This document shows positions 614-29,547 of a DNA stretch of 64,000 bases, piece by piece. A program made the translations under genes and the position numbers. Below the pieces are notes generated by a model that saw only the letters and a program-made list of their open reading frames with translations, ran no database searches and was not told the DNA's origin. The DNA is from an uncultured cyanobacterium (lineage in GTDB: Bacteria > Cyanobacteriota > Cyanobacteriia > Cyanobacteriales > CAWUOF01), in NCBI GenBank assembly GCA_963744145.1, contig CAVUSO010000001.1, positions 352,001-416,000 of the forward strand, given 5' to 3'. Position 1 is the stretch's first letter. Each line of letters starts with the position of its first letter.

Positions 614-1357
614 TTAGTTGCCGAGATCCGCTTCGGTACATAATACAGGGTAGAAAACAGCAATAGCATGAGTCAGACGAGTTTCGTGGGAATCACCAAA
701 AAAAACTGAAAACATAGCAGTGCAAATCAAGGCTGTTAAAAAAGTCGCTAAAATAATACCTAGCATGACATCCAAACCTAAAACGAACATATTACCACCG
801 ATAAAATGATTCCCAGCTATTCCAAAAGCACCTCCACCAATACAACCAGTAAATAAACATAAGCATCCAGATAAGCACCCATACCACACTTCTATATTAT
901 TACAACCCATTAATTGTCCTTGGGTCAAAGTATAATGGGTCAAAATATTACAAGGAAGGTGTCCTGAAACTCCCCCCAAGTCAAATTTAAGGTCTTTCTC
1001 ATGCAGCCATTGTCCTTCGTATCTCCAACCCACTTGATTACTAAACTTGATCAGATTATCCTGCTCTTGATCTGGCTCCGAATTTTCGACAACACTTTTC
1101 CAGATTCGTTTTTGCACACTAAAACCAAAGCGTCCTTGTGAATACTCTACCCATAACTGGTCGATCGTGCGAAGGTCAGTTAATGGGAAATTGAGCCAAT
1201 CTGTTTTCTGAAGAAATCCTTTTTTCTCACACTTAGCAGCTTGGAGCATAAGTAGACGAGTTTCTTGATCAGCTTTTTTCCATTCACCATTAGTTAACAA
1301 GTCTTCCAGGTGACGATAATCTATGCCCACTTCACTTGCTAGAATAATTTCACTCAT
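614..1357 (-). CDS. GUN4-like domain protein with C-terminal hydrophobic (probable transmembrane) extension
   Basis: GUN4-like motifs IDYRHLEDLL..GEWKKADQET, DLRTIDQLWVEYSQGRFGFSVQKRIW, VGWR and GHLP, followed by two hydrophobic segments. Confidence 0.85.
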   Translation of the reverse strand: MSEIILASEVGIDYRHLEDLLTNGEWKKADQETRLLMLQAAKCEKKGFLQKTDWLNFPLTDLRTIDQLWVEYSQGRFGFSVQKRIWKSVVENSEPDQEQDNLIKFSNQVGWRYEGQWLHEKDLKFDLGGVSGHLPCNILTHYTLTQGQLMGCNNIEVWYGCLSGCLCLFTGCIGGGAFGIAGNHFIGGNMFVLGLDVMLGIILATFLTALICTAMFSVFFGDSHETRLTHAIAVFYPVLCTEADLGN

Positions 1358-25708: not shown

Positions 25709-26134
25709 TTAAGAGTTAGGGTCATCACTTCCCCAGATTGTCTGAATAACAGACAGCGCTCTAATTTTGCGATCTTTTGTTACTAAAGGCAAACCGAGAT
25801 ATAGAGCGGTCGCTGCAATAATGCGATCGCCCATTTCGGGAACCGTCAACCGAGGAATTTTAGCTAAAGTCCTAGCCACCAAAACATCCACTGGTATAAC
25901 TATTAACCCAACATCAGGATCAGCTAGGTATTGCACAAGCTGTTCTAAAGCAACTTCAGGAATCCTGTTTTTCTCAACTAGATAGGTTATTTCTACCATA
26001 GAGATTGCTGACAGGTAAATCGGATACCCATTATTAACCGCACTATTCAGAGCGATCGCAGCATCCAGTGATAATTTCTCTGGACTTTGGAAATACTAGA
26101 TAATCGCATGAGTATCAGCAACAACAGCACTCAT
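25709..26134 (-). pseudogene. VapC/PIN-domain toxin with a nonsense codon at position 13
   Basis: Reads MSAVVADTHAII*YFQSPEKLS...SAISMVEITYL...DRIIAATAL...LVTKD; TAG at 26098-26096 where the family has Trp (DTHxxIW); ATGA overlap with the antitoxin stop. Confidence 0.85.
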
Positions 26135-26370
26135 AGTTCAATATCCTTGGGAAAATTTCCCCACATCTCACGTCTTGTTTCAGCAAGTTCTTCTTCAGTA
26201 ATATTTATATCTAAATGTGCCCATATTCCTTCTAAACTCTTCCGAGGTCGTTTAACATTAATTCTAGTTTTCAAAAACTCCGCAAAATCCAAAAGTTCCT
26301 GTTGTTTTTCTGGTGGCAATACTTCTAATATTTCAACTACTGTCTGACTAATACTGGTAATCACAGTCAT
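26131..26370 (-). CDS. DUF2281-type antitoxin (start probably MTVITS)
   Basis: LPPEKQQELLDFAEFLK motif, SLEGIW; translationally coupled to the PIN gene. Confidence 0.8.
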   Translation of the reverse strand: MTVITSISQTVVEILEVLPPEKQQELLDFAEFLKTRINVKRPRKSLEGIWAHLDINITEEELAETRREMWGNFPKDIEL

Positions 26371-26551
26371 TTTGTTAATCCTCCTTGGCTGATCAAATTT
26401 GATTTGCCCCAATTTGTTAATCATCAATCGAGGGAACAGGCGAGATATCCATTCCTTATTTAGATTGTAGCAACAAATCTAAATTTTCACCATTTAAGAT
26501 CCCAACCAGAATACTCATTAATTCTCTGAGATCATCAGGAACACGGTATAA

Positions 26552-27012
26552 ATGCAAATCTTGCACTACAAAGTGAAAGAAATATAGATTACGCTCCTCT
26601 ACGTGAATTATTAGCTGCTGGTAAATGGAAAGATGCTGATTGGAAAACTTATGAGCTTGTACTTAAAGCTGCTAATCGTGAAAAAGAAAGATATCTCACT
26701 GGTGATGATTGGGTAAAATTTCCCTGTAAATATCTTCGCACTATAGATCAGTTATGGGTAAAATATTCTGATGGTCGTTTTGGTTTCAGCGTCCAAAAAC
26801 AAATATGGGAGAGTAAGGAAATTGGAGGATATCCCAAGGCTGGAAGTGCGATCAAGCGCAAATTGGGTGATAAAGTAGGGTGGAGAAAAGGAGGCAATTG
26901 GTTGAGCTATGATGACCTAACTTTTAACACCTCGGCTCCCGTGGGCCACCTTCCGTTGTTGGGGGGTTGGTGGGTTTGGGGGGGGTCTCTTCTCTCGCGC
27001 AAAGACTTGTAA
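26552..27012 (+). CDS. Stand-alone GUN4-like domain gene absent from the ORF track; ATG out of frame by 1 nt (pseudogene or assembly error)
   Basis: Frame 1 from 26554 reads ANLALQSERNIDYAPLRELLAAGKWKDADWKT...LRTIDQLWVKYSDGRFGFSVQKQIW...VGWR...APVGHLPLLGGWWVWGGSLLSRKDL*. One extra base after ATG gives MANLALQSERNIDY, the same spacing as MSEIILASEVGIDY in the 614-1357 paralog. Confidence 0.85.
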
Positions 27013-27399
27013 CCTGTAAGATATAACAATTTCAGGCCATTGTCAAGCTTATTTTTGGTACTAATTTCTACGCAAACATCGGCTTTTTCCAAACTCAATA
27101 CCTGGCACTGACCTAGCAACTGGCACGAGTCGTCCGGCGGGAGTCCGTCTAGTCCGTCTGATGTTAAAATAAAAAATCGCAAGATTAGGCCAGGTGAATA
27201 GAACAACTTAAACTAAGAATTATTAAAAAACTGTGCAGCGACTTTTGGGTCATAGCAATTAGCCATCACAAACTTTTCAGCCACTTGATGAATTTCAGAG
27301 TTAGTCGGTTCCGATCGCATTTTTCCCAGATTACCCATTAGAATAATAGCTTTCGCGATCGGACTTCACCGTTAAGGATATTTTGGGGATATCGGAATA

Positions 27400-27593
27400 G
27401 AAGAAGGGCGAAGCATTCGGATATAATATTAATCGATGTAAGTGATTAATTATCGCCCGAATGCTTCGCCCCTACATCCTATTGATCTGCAAGAAGAAGA
27501 AGGGCGAAGCATTCAGATATAATATTAACCGCCCTTCGACTACGCTCAGGGTAAAATGTAAGTGATAAATTTTCGCCCAAATGCTTCGCCCCT
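27400..27593. repeat. Two tandem REP-like stem-loops, the second with a nested insertion
   Basis: GGGCGAAGCATTCGG...CCGAATGCTTCGCCC occurs twice; the second loop contains an extra CCCTTCGACTACGCTCAGGG. Confidence 0.75.
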
Positions 27594-27693
27594 TAGAATA
27601 TGCTATTTTGAGTAGACAGCGATCTACAAGTTCTAGTCGAACTGGGTTTAAAGGCGATCGCTTTACCAAATTTTACCAAATTAGTCCAAATCA

Positions 27694-29547
27694 ATGCCAT
27701 ATTCCAAAAACCCAGAACGTATACCTACTATTGTTGAAGCACTAGAAAATCAATCCGTCGAACAATTAAAAAAACTGATCACTTATTTACCAACCACTCA
27801 AAAGGTTTCGCGTAAAGCTGAATTGGTTAATCTTGTTTCTAATTATTTGAATAATGAAACTAGCTTATACCAACTTTGGCAAAAACTTGATCAACTTCAA
27901 CAAGCAGCAGTAGCTGAAGTTGTTTATTCGTCACAAACCCAGTTTGATGCAATTAAGTTTAAGGCTAAATACAGACAATTACCTAATTTTGATAATTCCG
28001 ATCGATATAACTATAATAGTCAGCCCTCTCTACTCAGGTTATTCTTCTATAGCTATAACATTATTCCAGATGAGATGAAACTACTATTGAAAAAATTTGT
28101 TCCTCGTCCAGTCGATGTTAAACTCATCAGTGTTTCTGAACTTCCTCCCTTCATTAATCAGCGATCGGAAGAATATAATTCTACTACCAAACAATACGAG
28201 CAAAAAGTAACAGAAGTAACCTTAGTGCAACGAGAAATGGAACGTTCTGCACAACAGGATTTGATGGCAATATTGCGTTTAATTAATGCTGGTAAACTAA
28301 CCGTTAGCGATAAGACAAATCATCCTACCGCAGCTACAGTTAAAGCAATTACTGCTGTTCTTTCTGGTGGTGATTATTATATTGATAAAGAACCAGAAGA
28401 GCGTCCACCTTATCAAGAACCAATTGGTCCAATTAGAGCTTTTGCTTGGTCGTTAATTCTCCAAGCAGCAGGTTTAGCAGAATTAAGTGAAAAAAAGTTA
28501 CGTTTGACTAAAGCAGGTCAAAAAGCACTGGTTGATCCACCTGAAAAAACTCTCAAGCTAGCTTGGGAAAAATGGGTAAATAATAAAACTTTTGACGAAT
28601 TGCGTCGGATTGAAACAATTAAAGGACAAACAGGTAAGGGGAAACAAGGTTTAACTGTAACTAGCGAACGGAGACAAGCGATCGCGATTATTTTGAGAGA
28701 TTCGACCGTCAATTCTTGGGTAGAGGTGAATGATTTTTTGCGCTATCTGCTAGCGGTAGGATATAATTTTCAGATCACAAGGAATATAGAAAGTCTGTAT
28801 ATTTGTGATGCTCATTACGGTACTCTTTATGATCCAGATGCTGCTTGGAATATTCTCCAAGGTCGCTATATTCTCTGTCTGTTATTCGAGTATGCAGCTA
28901 CATTGGGAATGCTAGATGTTGCTTATGTTTCTCCGTCTGGTGCGCGTTATGATTATCAGGATTTCTGGGGAGCAGAGGAACTAGAATTTTTCAGTCGCTA
29001 TGATGGTTTGATGTATTTTCGATTAACTCCTTTGGGTGCTTACTGTTTGGGAGTTACTAATAATTATCAACCCGCACCAATAGAAGTACGTCCAGTTTTA
29101 CAGGTATTACCAAATTTGGAAATTACCCCGATCGCAGAGCCGTTAACTGGTGCAGATATGTTACTTTTAGATATCTATACTGAGAAAGTTTCTGATACTA
29201 CTTGGAAATTGCAGGATGGTAAATTGTTGAATGCGATCGCGGAAGGTAATAATATCTCAGTATTCCAAGAGTTTATTCAAGCTAAAAGTGGTAATCTTTT
29301 ACCAGAAACAGCGAGACAGTTTATAGCTGATATTAAAGCACGTAGTCACAGTTTAAAAGATAAAGGGACTGCTCGCATAATTGAGTGTAAAGATGCAGAT
29401 TTAGCTAGGTTAATTGCCAATAATCCACAAACTAAACCTTATTGTATGTTATTAGGAGAGCGTTGTTTAGTTGTCCCAACTACTTCTGAAATTAAGTTTC
29501 ACGATAATTTGATCAAATTAGGTTATAGCTTAGTCCGGTTTAGTTAA
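27694..29547 (+). CDS. Hypothetical protein with XPB/Ssl2-like helicase-associated C-terminal domain
   Basis: 617-aa ORF; FRLTPLGAYCLG...LQVLPNLEI pattern typical of helicase-associated domain proteins; no Walker motifs seen. Confidence 0.6.
   Translation: MPYSKNPERIPTIVEALENQSVEQLKKLITYLPTTQKVSRKAELVNLVSNYLNNETSLYQLWQKLDQLQQAAVAEVVYSSQTQFDAIKFKAKYRQLPNFDNSDRYNYNSQPSLLRLFFYSYNIIPDEMKLLLKKFVPRPVDVKLISVSELPPFINQRSEEYNSTTKQYEQKVTEVTLVQREMERSAQQDLMAILRLINAGKLTVSDKTNHPTAATVKAITAVLSGGDYYIDKEPEERPPYQEPIGPIRAFAWSLILQAAGLAELSEKKLRLTKAGQKALVDPPEKTLKLAWEKWVNNKTFDELRRIETIKGQTGKGKQGLTVTSERRQAIAIILRDSTVNSWVEVNDFLRYLLAVGYNFQITRNIESLYICDAHYGTLYDPDAAWNILQGRYILCLLFEYAATLGMLDVAYVSPSGARYDYQDFWGAEELEFFSRYDGLMYFRLTPLGAYCLGVTNNYQPAPIEVRPVLQVLPNLEITPIAEPLTGADMLLLDIYTEKVSDTTWKLQDGKLLNAIAEGNNISVFQEFIQAKSGNLLPETARQFIADIKARSHSLKDKGTARIIECKDADLARLIANNPQTKPYCMLLGERCLVVPTTSEIKFHDNLIKLGYSLVRFS

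Follow-up and report, generated by a model that had tools for sequence, protein, structure and literature searches.

Genes for GUN4-domain sensor proteins in cyanobacteria can end in a hypervariable, G/T-rich tract that follows the last conserved residues of the domain, GHLP, and runs into a conserved tail with a stop codon in each of the three reading frames. We consider it probable, if with restrained confidence, that this C-terminus is built to tolerate changes of both length and frame. Judged from alignments of related genes, the tract turns over far faster than its flanks, through small indels at high density, short duplications and sharply bordered replacement of the whole tract, and intact genes read into the tail in all three frames.

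The window, by which we mean the whole 64,000-nt stretch that was analysed, holds an extreme case of the family pattern, with a tract of 30 nt made of G and T only. Its single-domain GUN4 open frame of 160 codons (26530..27012, plus strand) matches PF05419 with an E-value of 1.7e-41 and 142 bits against a cut-off of 29.2, residues 14-147 covering profile positions 1-131 of 141. The GHLP codons at 26944..26955 (+), where the conserved GUN4 core ends and the variable sequence has its 5' border, are followed by the hypervariable tract at 26956..26985 (+), with its G6 and G8 runs and the translation LLGGWWVWGG, and then by the triple-frame tail TCTCTTCTCTCGCGCAAAGACTTGTAACCTGTAAGATATAA at 26986..27026 (+). 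The tail contains three 7-nt units, each with a terminal TAA (27010-12, 27017-19 and 27024-26), one per reading frame, and its three readings end in ..LLSRKDL, ..LFSRAKTCNL and ..SSLAQRLVTCKI before the stop. No adenine occurs in the 52 nt at 26949-27000, the sole A-free run of at least 35 nt within the 64-kb window, where base composition predicts about 0.0012 A-free 52-mers. An earlier note on this DNA had drawn attention to the adenine-free run and to the three stops at 7-nt spacing, both of which held; it had also placed a G/T-only stretch at 26956-26986, which was right in composition and one base short in extent, the real run being 26955-26986 (32 nt; about 6.6e-05 G/T-only 31-mers expected). 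On contig C1, 6 of the 11 longest two-letter runs of at least 28 nt (G/T, or A/C on the opposite strand) proved to be GUN4 tracts, with G/T on the coding strand.

The window copy itself may be a start-less pseudogene, a gene with an unusual start or the product of an assembly indel, and is perhaps inactive. Suspicion of a pseudogene or assembly indel arises because no canonical start codon (ATG, GTG or TTG) precedes the TTG at 26863; an ATG at 26549 lies out of the GUN4 frame, and the initial methionine of homologous 160-aa proteins aligns with the codon at 26548-26550. We found no close ortholog of this copy in 41 related genomes, in the genome contigs searched (13 loci, all at most 59% identical) or among 5.8 billion proteins, where the best matches, at 63%, were paralogs of the same genome. 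Metagenome contigs from soil and sediment that matched the region with small word shares were pieces of paralogs and relatives.

The same genome contains 54 PF05419 matches in total, 24 of them with the tail, which is read in frames A, B and C in 11, 5 and 8 cases. In most members of the family here the GUN4 module is joined to a Ser/Thr kinase, and in some to a caspase-like protease; the fusion partners were mapped with two families, Pkinase and Peptidase_C14. Every one of the 17 copies of the tail core in this genome stands behind a GUN4 domain at the gene end, with no orphan copy. The 247-aa GUN4 paralog at 614..1357 does not have the tract-plus-tail module, as the earlier note had said when it named this gene an internal control; it lies on the minus strand and carries a long hydrophobic extension after GHLP instead. 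In a second tail family of the genome, three stops again stand at 7-nt intervals and three frames are in use, one of which reads through as the linker of a protein with four GUN4 domains.

Across the phylum, 61 of 301 sampled genomes contained a 27-nt core of the tail, and a reversed control pattern gave 0 matches. Among 30 fetched loci, 26 were recognized automatically as a GUN4 ORF running into the tail and 2 more by eye; of the other two, one carries a nonsense codon within its tract and the other is an orphan tail. The tail spans about 40 nt, with a C/T-rich start and then the three 7-nt units, each closed by a stop codon, and this single nucleotide sequence read in three frames yields three types of tail peptide, with the consensus ..LLSR(R/K)DL in frame A, ..LFSR(V/A)(E/K)TC(K/N)L in frame B and ..SSLA(S/Q)RLV.C(N/K)I in frame C, each directly before a stop. 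A set of 122 distinct GUN4 gene ends was drawn from this genome, from other cyanobacteria and from metagenomes. Frames A, B and C were used 38, 47 and 37 times in it (chi-square p 0.47 against equal thirds), counts that are non-independent samples because the gene ends are mutually related and were gathered by tail pattern or GUN4 similarity. In the same gene ends the tail nucleotide sequence was equally conserved in every frame class, coding or not (consensus identity 0.76-0.87), and the unused stops were intact in 68-95% of cases.

Three tail types had been named in the earlier note, and they do occur at near-equal frequency among 120 database homologs (28 with the A tail, 29 with B, 31 with C and 32 unclassified). 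The check proposed there, an alignment of GUN4 gene ends, returned a constant tail, tract lengths across all residues modulo 3 and depletion of A, and the rival outcome, the same tract throughout with a single tail frame, is contradicted by tracts that cannot be aligned between orthologs and by the 38/47/37 use of frames. Since the three frames are equally used by intact long ORFs, all three tail products appear to be at least tolerated. Reading from these ORFs, a frameshift in the tract would not switch the gene OFF, every frame ending in a conserved tail peptide; a ribosome that reached the tail in any frame would be expected to make a short helix replacing α7 of GUN4, and then to stop.

Tract length, measured between the GHLP codons and the tail, ranges from 23 to 327 nt across the family, and each tract is unique to its gene. 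Tracts could not be aligned between orthologs or between tandem repeats of one gene, with flanks 94-100% identical, in agreement with the initial proposal that the tract is diversified in sequence and in length. The orthologs L089 and L090, for example, have kinases that are 97.8% identical and a tail plus 150 nt downstream that is 96% identical, with unalignable tracts of 65 and 147 nt; in L125 and L127 (domain 98.5%, tail plus downstream 97%) the tract is again unalignable and its borders are sharp, and one ORF with four tandem repeats has near-identical flanks around four unrelated tracts. Those changes that can be aligned are ordinary-looking small indels and one 6-nt tandem duplication, and L139 and L148 differ by 7 indel events in 128 nt of tract and by 0 in 342 nt of domain.

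Turnover is not uniformly fast. Five protein pairs with domains 92-97.6% identical have the same tract, and L139 and L145 differ at 2 of 122 nt in the tract, with 18 substitutions in 342 nt of domain. These shared tracts, together with kinase and GUN4-domain identities that are decoupled between loci, indicate that recombination between alleles contributes, and some of the tract replacements may be imports from unsampled donors. For the gene P0109, a search for Dolichospermum alleles gave one 100% copy only in 20 genomes of the genus, and its metagenome relatives were at most 75% identical. A broader version of the recombination argument holds that gene conversion shuffles tracts among paralogs or alleles, with the GHLP region and the tail as homology arms, and that the variation is a reassorted pool, not new sequence. 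Mosaic histories, in which the identities of kinase, GUN4 domain, tract and tail-plus-flank are decoupled, are what such shuffling would leave, as are sharp replacement borders. We nevertheless hold it to be very unlikely: 0 of 2,485 metagenome pairs have a tract common to diverged domains, tract similarity of at least 0.72 occurring in 15 of them and only with domains at least 88.9% identical; 0 of 276 paralog pairs in this complete genome exceed the shuffled maximum of tract similarity; and two tracts searched in five congeneric genomes gave self-matches only.

The composition of the tract sets it apart from the domain that it follows. Tracts contain 15% A, 10% C, 42% G and 33% T, against 32% A in the domain, and the bias is present at four-fold degenerate sites (A/C/G/T 17/11/39/34% in the tract and 28/22/20/29% in the domain), with G/T-richness at all three codon positions. 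The tract has no codon periodicity (codon-position chi-square 8.1, p 0.23; 508 for the domain), and its base bias goes with the coding strand of the gene, whichever chromosome strand that is. With the tract almost free of A, stop codons would be rare in every frame, and because they are rare most indels should shift the frame without truncating the protein. Of 62 tracts, only 16 have no stop in any frame. Off-frame stops were not rarer in tracts than composition predicts (147 observed against 135 ± 10 in shuffled sequence), and no sign was seen of selection against them, or for three-frame openness, beyond A-depletion.

On the reading we favour, the variation would come from slippage and repair errors at non-template-strand G-runs, with selection keeping frames open, rather than from a dedicated enzyme. 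Across the 62 tracts there was no excess of repeated k-mers over a first-order Markov model, which argues against microsatellite-type slippage as the only source, and G-runs of at least 7 nt numbered only 8. A G-quadruplex motif was present in 12 of the 62 tracts, against 8.2 ± 2.1 after shuffling, a difference we find unconvincing.

A dedicated, undescribed mutator could instead rewrite the tract between the GHLP-end codons and the tail with its 3' element, the triple-frame tail having evolved to accept the products; candidate activities are non-templated synthesis, RNA-templated G/T-rich synthesis, and targeted deamination with break repair. Such an enzyme would account for replacement that is all-or-none, with sharp borders and flanks 97-100% identical, for tracts that are each unique and for which donor copies were not found, for G/T-rich synonymous sites next to the absence of codon periodicity and of k-mer excess, for a bias that tracks the coding strand on both chromosome strands, and for a 3' flank kept beyond the stops together with an antisense promoter-like site. 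Yet no candidate enzyme is linked to GUN4 loci, the three reverse-transcriptase matches in the genome include none near a GUN4 locus, some tracts are identical across 3-8% domain divergence, and the tract changes that can be aligned are ordinary small indels and the 6-nt tandem duplication. We regard a dedicated mutator as possible but unlikely.

Conservation extends past the last stop, for roughly 20-110 nt, so part of the tail conservation could serve a DNA or RNA function. In the window, the conserved sequence CAATTTCAGGCCATTGTCAAGC...CCTGGCACTG at 27027..27115 (+) is common to other GUN4 gene ends of this genome and of other genera. A promoter-like TTGACA-17 nt-TATCTT with 10 of 12 consensus positions lies on the minus strand at 27018..27046 and, if active, would drive antisense transcription through tail and tract; it is only a lead, promoter-like sites in the region being no more numerous than in shuffled sequence. 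Farther downstream, a short and apparently truncated convergent ORF (27213..27338, minus strand) has a C-terminus, ..AEKFVMANCYDPKVAAQFFNNS, that recurs behind three other GUN4 tails here. The longest version of the ORF is a 129-codon open frame (C1:4710621-4711010) that belongs to no Pfam family, and in other genera, too, GUN4 tails adjoin similar DNA. Scanned against Rfam, 26400-27700 returned sub-threshold chance matches only; a palindromic repeat at 27404-27476 drew miRNA-like matches of this kind. RNAalifold predicted 0 base pairs for 24 tails with their flanks, no terminator-like hairpin was found at the tail or flank, and a candidate hairpin, CTGTAAC..GTTACAG, was set aside, being present in some lineages only.

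If the tract were an unconstrained low-complexity linker, and the tail with its 3' flank a DNA or RNA element (a terminator, a regulatory or antisense RNA, or a recombination site), the three stops and the tail peptides would be by-products. Several observations point in this direction: the tail is equally conserved whether translated or not, with conservation reaching beyond the third stop; an element some 90-110 nt long is conserved behind the tail across families; and the promoter-like site is present on the opposite strand. Against it, the searches above found no Rfam family, consensus RNA structure or terminator-like hairpin; a free linker should drift towards AT-richness, whereas the tract keeps 42% G and 15% A, synonymous sites included; the tail is found exclusively behind GUN4 domains (17/17 in this genome); all frames give similar helix-plus-short-end peptides, modelled as α7 for A and C; and intact long ORFs use the frames equally. 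On balance a mere linker with a non-coding element seems to us distinctly unlikely.

Structural models place the tract and tail in a defined part of the GUN4 fold. As the available text of Verdecia 2005 has it, the segment behind GHLP in Synechocystis GUN4 carries the porphyrin-contacting end of the α6/α7 loop, with Leu210, Arg214 and Arg217, and helix α7; within this loop, Leu207 and Pro208 are the counterparts of the GHLP residues of the window copy. Sequence alignments to solved GUN4 structures end at GHLPL; structural alignments of GUN4 models to solved structures (Z 20.8-21.3) reach the last residue. The AlphaFold model of the window copy has a mean pLDDT of 83.4 and a predicted GUN4 core fold, and it aligns with Synechocystis GUN4 4xkc at Z 20.8 and 2.3 Å rmsd over 147 residues and with 1z3x at Z 20.5. 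Within the models the tract has low pLDDT (42-46 in a frame-C model and 66 in the window model), and the tail is a helix (pLDDT 74-82) at the position of α7.

From these models we infer that the tract takes the place of the distal part of the α6/α7 loop, above the porphyrin pocket, and that the tail stands in for α7; the frame-A tail SLLSR.DL also appears to resemble the canonical SLLNH stretch. The earlier note's proposal that the tail completes the fold in any frame thus gains support for frames A and C alone, from AlphaFold models. In true GUN4 the distal α6/α7 loop covers the porphyrin and carries Arg214 and Arg217; if the tract takes its place, it is the lid of the ligand pocket that varies, and this could diversify ligand binding by these sensors or could mark a loop released from constraint. 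We offer more tentatively, and think it unlikely, that multicellular cyanobacteria possess an undescribed targeted diversification system, one that inserts frame-less G/T-rich DNA of any length at a site flanked by the GHLP codons and the conserved 3' element and so rewrites the lid loop of GUN4 sensor domains in signalling or conflict proteins, kinases and caspases among them. The tail would then have evolved into a 'universal acceptor', completing the fold and stopping translation in whichever frame it is read. No join would fall out of frame, and the system would be a bacterial counterpart of junctional diversity.

That a DGR targets the tract is already contradicted, and we give the idea next to no credence. 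Its appeal lies in the A-depletion of the tract, in a broken reverse-transcriptase gene in the genome, and in an architecture like that of cyanobacterial DGR targets, in which, according to the available portions of PMC7517822 and PMC7159879, a kinase or caspase at the N-terminus is combined with a C-terminal ligand-binding domain whose end is variable. RVT_1 matches lie at 3.19, 5.01 and 5.09 Mb, the window locus at 0.38 Mb; one of the three matches is beside a CRISPR array, one is broken and one is a 493-aa protein. The broken gene is a 183-aa ORF inside a 275-codon open frame, with motifs that we take to be DGR-type. The earlier note had cautioned against a DGR and had suggested a search for a template copy and a nearby reverse transcriptase. 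That search, run genome-wide, found neither, and the caution proved justified: each of the 17 tail copies closes a GUN4 gene and no template repeat was seen among them, no reverse transcriptase is at a GUN4 locus, and the sole DGR-like one is truncated and 4.6 Mb from the window locus. Moreover, tract length ranges from 23 to 327 nt, where a DGR would keep it constant; tract variants show indels and differences at every kind of base; and the tail is present in 61 of 301 sampled genomes.

If a C-terminus tolerant of length and frame changes is the right reading, it is a coding architecture that we have not found described, comprising hundreds of genes with a frameshift-readable C-terminus and a translated stretch without a frame signature. 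In full-text literature, as far as the available text goes, the tail peptide strings gave one match only, a proteome survey, and on GUN4 hypervariability in cyanobacteria the available portions of PMC7159879 and PMC7517822 name the GUN4 domain and not its tail. For annotation, it follows that paralogs with seemingly unrelated C-termini have one DNA tail and that frameshifted copies are not necessarily pseudogenes. The variation would be placed where GUN4 covers its tetrapyrrole ligand, in conflict and signalling proteins, next to lectin domains diversified by DGRs (PMC7159879, available portions), which suggests that multicellular cyanobacteria have a second and independent way to diversify receptors. 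A-poor tracts with stops in all frames offer a tractable test case of selection for mutational robustness, and a dedicated mutator, if true, would be a new class of targeted mutagenesis.

Several known systems share features with this arrangement. Canonical GUN4, the Mg-chelatase cofactor (Synechocystis Sll0558; PDB 1Y6I, 4XKB and 4XKC), has the same core fold, and the GHLP of its α6/α7 loop is kept; in canonical proteins, including this genome's own copy, a fixed segment follows GHLP, whereas tail-type paralogs have the variable tract and triple-frame tail instead. Available portions of PMC7159879 name GUN4 and FGS domains side by side as cyanobacteria-specific C-terminal domains, and those of PMC7159879 and PMC7517822 place DGR regions in CLec/FGE-sulfatase domains, which likewise show local hypervariation at the ligand-binding end of a C-terminal domain in multidomain signalling or conflict proteins. 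Unlike DGR regions, the GUN4 tract has no template repeat or linked reverse transcriptase, its length is variable, its changes are not adenine-specific and its frame is free. In the contingency loci of host-adapted bacteria, long simple repeats switch genes ON and OFF by phase variation. Contingency loci and the GUN4 tract both have G-runs in coding sequence, where indels alter the downstream frame and the C-terminus; the G6 and G8 runs of the window copy could act as a mutable repeat of this type, but most GUN4 tracts are not simple repeats, G-runs of at least 7 nt being few in the family (8 in 62 tracts), and all three frames give complete proteins. The tract also resembles CDR3 junctional diversity, by analogy, in that conserved segments are joined through a variable-length, unique, G-rich junction in what would be a ligand-contacting loop. 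Of the three junction frames possible in V(D)J recombination, two are non-productive, whereas the downstream segment of GUN4 is readable in all three, and the likeness is one of analogy, not of programmed or somatic rearrangement. Overprinted genes, finally, share with the tail a multi-frame constraint on one sequence and unusually high nucleotide conservation; in contrast to them, the frames of the GUN4 tail are used alternately by different paralogs and orthologs, not together in one gene.

At the GHLP codons that end the conserved GUN4 core (26944-26955), the single-domain open frame first noticed (26530-27012, + strand; Pfam GUN4 match, E 1.7e-41) enters 52 nt without adenine (26949-27000), as the earlier note had reported. 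This is the sole adenine-free run of at least 35 nt in the window, where about 0.0012 would be expected from base composition. The claimed run of G and T exclusively is present within it, although its true extent is 26955-26986 (32 nt) and not 26956-26986. The frame ends as ..APVGHLPLLGGWWVWGGSLLSRKDL with its stop at 27010, and the other two frames end as ..LFSRAKTCNL (stop 27017) and ..SSLAQRLVTCKI (stop 27024), bearing out the claim of stops in three frames at 7-nt spacing. We call the G/T-rich variable stretch the tract and the conserved DNA 3′ of it the tail.

Within this family, the window copy may be a dead gene. No ATG, GTG or TTG occurs in its frame upstream of 26863, and the Met start of homologous 160-aa proteins is AAT here, with an ATG one base off frame; the copy is therefore perhaps inactive or carries an assembly indel. 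Directly 5′ of the start-less frame are two small ORFs (96 and 98 aa; 25709-26427, − strand), and nearby, at ~26460-26485, is an inverted repeat of 8 bp, TTTAGATT..AATCTAAA; an insertion around 25709-26485 might account for the absence of a start. No protein on record is identical or nearly so, the top match (63% identity) being a paralog in this genome. The closest paralogs share 81-82% DNA identity and, with the window copy, cover all three tail frames.

This 7.7-Mb genome (39% G+C) holds 54 GUN4-domain matches, whose ends sort into recurring types. The same ~41-nt tail stands on 24 of the 54, entered in frame 0, 1 or 2 by 11, 5 and 8 genes, respectively. Its consensus across the family, TCTCTTCTCTCGCGTCGAGACTTGTAAACTGTAACATCTAA, has a C/T-rich start and then three 7-nt units, each closed by a stop; because 7 = 1 mod 3, each further unit serves the next frame, giving the consensus ends ..LLSRRDL (frame A), ..LFSRVETC(K/R)L (frame B) and ..SSLASRLV.CNI (frame C). 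A second tail family, TCTCTTTTCTCTTCTCTAGACTCTAACATATAG, has the identical three-stop layout, and one of its frames is the Pro/Thr/Ser-rich read-through linker of a 1066-codon ORF encoding a Pkinase and four tandem GUN4 domains (main contig C1:7458283-7461318, − strand), in which a frameshift within any of the internal tracts would terminate the protein early at the other stops of that tail. At least 15 GUN4 ORFs of this genome also carry a Pkinase domain and two carry Peptidase_C14. At locus L043/L084, one GUN4 gene ends in a doubled tail (..SLFSRTLFWHRAPRTLFSRTDL), so the tail itself can be duplicated.

Searching 301 sampled genomes of the phylum with a 27-nt tail core (≤3 mismatches) returned 61 genomes, and the reversed pattern, used as control, gave 0 matches everywhere. 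The core occurs mainly in large-genome families (27/35, 11/14 and 9/18 genomes) and in no small-genome group among those sampled; the present genome has the most copies (17). In a set of 30 loci, taken from 30 genomes, automatic recognition found 26 GUN4 ORFs entering the tail; of the remaining four, two have variant motifs, one carries a nonsense codon within its tract and one is an orphan tail. Locus L080 (genome G321), a close relative of protein P0042, has a truncating tract variant, with a stop at the P0042 Trp between ..CDCWGF and FFRNDF... Frames A, B and C are used by 38, 47 and 37 of 122 distinct gene ends (all fetched loci pooled, 107 outside this genome; chi-square p 0.47), and the three tail types named in the earlier note do appear among 120 database homologues (28 A, 29 B, 31 C; 32 partial or deviant); both counts serve as description and do not represent independent sampling, since the sets were collected through the tail pattern or GUN4 similarity and hold related genes. 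Unused stops remain intact 68-95% of the time, and identity to the tail consensus (0.76-0.87) is equal for coding segments and segments past the gene's own stop.

Conservation past the stops would be accounted for if the tail were purely a DNA or RNA element, and it extends further 3′: a non-coding stretch of ~90-110 nt (27027-27115 in the window, with counterparts 3′ of many GUN4 tails from other genomes; alignment A1 of tails and flanks) keeps TTTCAG .. AAGATTTAT .. TTTCCACGAA .. TTTCCGATACC across paralogs and families. This stretch matches no Rfam family and shows no consensus structure or terminator, and tail plus flank likewise gave no RNA structure or terminator. A pure DNA- or RNA-element reading also leaves unexplained the composition, the tolerated protein products and the exclusive link to GUN4, all 17 tail-core copies in this genome lying directly 3′ of a GUN4 domain on the same strand. 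Right after GUN4 tails there is also a convergent ORF ending ..AEKFVMANCYDPKVAAQFFN(D/N)S (window 27213-27338, −; C1:4710621-4711010, −; C1:3279578-3279700, −; C1:4855484-4855606, +); its longest version, a 129-codon open frame, has no Pfam match, and DNA resembling it adjoins GUN4 tails in other genera. A palindromic repeat of ~70 nt at 27404-27476 gives sub-threshold miRNA-like Rfam matches on both strands and is present in many copies here and in other cyanobacterial genomes; it resembles a small hairpin repeat or a MITE.

Tracts are 23-327 nt long (median ~60). In 62 distinct tracts, bases are A 15%, C 10%, G 42% and T 33%; the neighbouring domain has 32% A. Four-fold degenerate sites follow suit (A/C/G/T 17/11/39/34% versus 28/22/20/29%), as do the shares of GGG among Gly codons (42% versus 18%), TTG among Leu codons (50% versus 18%) and TGT among Cys codons (86% versus 47%). 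All three codon positions have the same composition (chi-square 8.1, p 0.23), whereas the domain is strongly periodic (chi-square 508). The G/T bias tracks the coding strand for genes on both chromosome strands, and GUN4 tracts make up 6 of the 11 longest two-letter runs on C1. In these 62 tracts, internal k-mer repeats show no excess over a first-order Markov model and off-frame stops are not depleted beyond composition (147 observed versus 135 ± 10 predicted); 16 tracts are open in all frames.

The earlier note held the tract to be diversified in sequence and length, and several comparisons agree. Orthologs L089 and L090, from one genus, share 97.8% identity in their kinases, 87.7% in their GUN4 domains and 96% over the tail with 150 nt of downstream DNA, yet their tracts (65 versus 147 nt) are unalignable; in that genus, 2 of 231 pairs exceed 0.9 tract identity and the other 229 lie at the shuffled level (~0.5). 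Metagenome loci L125 and L127 (domain 98.5%, tail plus flank 97% identical) have wholly different tracts, the change being confined exactly to the tract borders, and one gene of this genome contains four tandem GUN4 repeats that are nearly identical in linker, domain and tail but differ in their tracts, all four of which are unrelated. Between L139 and L148, the tract (128 nt) has 7 indel events and 8 substitutions, with local frameshifts compensated, versus 0 indels and 13 substitutions in the domain (342 nt); in one allele pair the tracts differ by a 6-nt tandem duplication. Other pairs speak against a constant high rate: five protein pairs share a tract while their domains are 92-97.6% identical, and the tracts of L139 and L145 show 2 differences over 122 positions against 18 substitutions in the domain. 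Segment identities are decoupled, pointing to recombination between alleles. For a shuffling of tracts as cassettes no donors were found: 0 of 276 paralog pairs in this genome exceed the shuffled maximum, and among 2485 metagenome pairs tract identity reaches 0.72 in 15, all with domains at least 88.9% identical. Two tracts searched in five congeneric genomes gave self-matches only. We consider it unlikely that a dedicated mutator rewrites the tract.

Alignments to solved GUN4 structures do not extend past GHLPL. According to Verdecia et al. 2005 (PMC1084334), the α6/α7 loop of Synechocystis GUN4, which includes Leu207-Leu210, crosses the 'greasy palm', the porphyrin is modelled over Leu210 with its carboxylates taken by Arg214 and Arg217, and α7 (Val218, Ala219, Tyr223) forms part of the palm. 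From the GHLPL endpoint and this loop description, the tract would take the place of the distal part of the α6/α7 loop, which contacts the ligand, and the tail that of α7. AlphaFold models built with family alignments appear to agree for frames A and C. The window protein (frame A; mean pLDDT 83.4) has a predicted tail helix at residues 151-155 (block pLDDT 74) and matches 4xkc with Z 20.8 and rmsd 2.3 Å over 147 residues (3-160, first and last aligned residue only). Protein P0075 (frame C) has a tract of pLDDT 42-46 and a predicted tail helix at 145-159 (pLDDT 75-82), matching 4xkc with Z 21.3 and rmsd 1.6 Å over 141 residues (4-162, likewise first and last aligned residue only).

The tract is frame-free in composition, unique, and turned over by frequent indels and by replacement, and the three tail frames are used equally. 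The finding is real family-wide, with firm support for an architecture that combines a frameless tract and a triple-frame tail at the ligand lid; an adaptive reading of it is likely. Adenine poverty would keep reading frames open, and the tail would accept the ribosome in any frame.

Three reverse-transcriptase matches occur in this genome, away from GUN4 loci. One adjoins an array of at least 41 direct repeats of ~37 nt, spaced ~70-78 nt (C1:5091854-5092474, locus L056), an arrangement suggestive of a CRISPR array and its associated RT. Another is a truncated gene (C1:5012329-5012829; locus L058 4059-4886), whose 183-aa ORF lies in an open frame of 275 codons closing shortly after YLDDFA; from its motifs, including IGNLTSQ, presumably typical of such enzymes, we take it to be of the diversity-generating retroelement (DGR) type, and it is embedded in highly repeated MITE-like DNA.

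GUN4 has been named beside the DGR-linked FGS lectin domain among cyanobacteria-specific C-terminal domains found in conflict systems (Kaur et al. 2020, PMC7159879), and GUN4-like domains are mentioned in DGR-target proteins (Vallota-Eastman et al. 2020, PMC7517822); in neither paper does the passage on GUN4 mention the tail. No description of a GUN4 tail was found in the literature searched, and to that extent the tract and tail architecture is undescribed. A DGR is excluded as far as testable, with no template copy found (all 17 tail-core copies sit at GUN4 ends), variable tract length and the RT matches elsewhere, upholding the earlier suggestion that the adenine loss resembles that of DGRs but that the mechanism is perhaps different.
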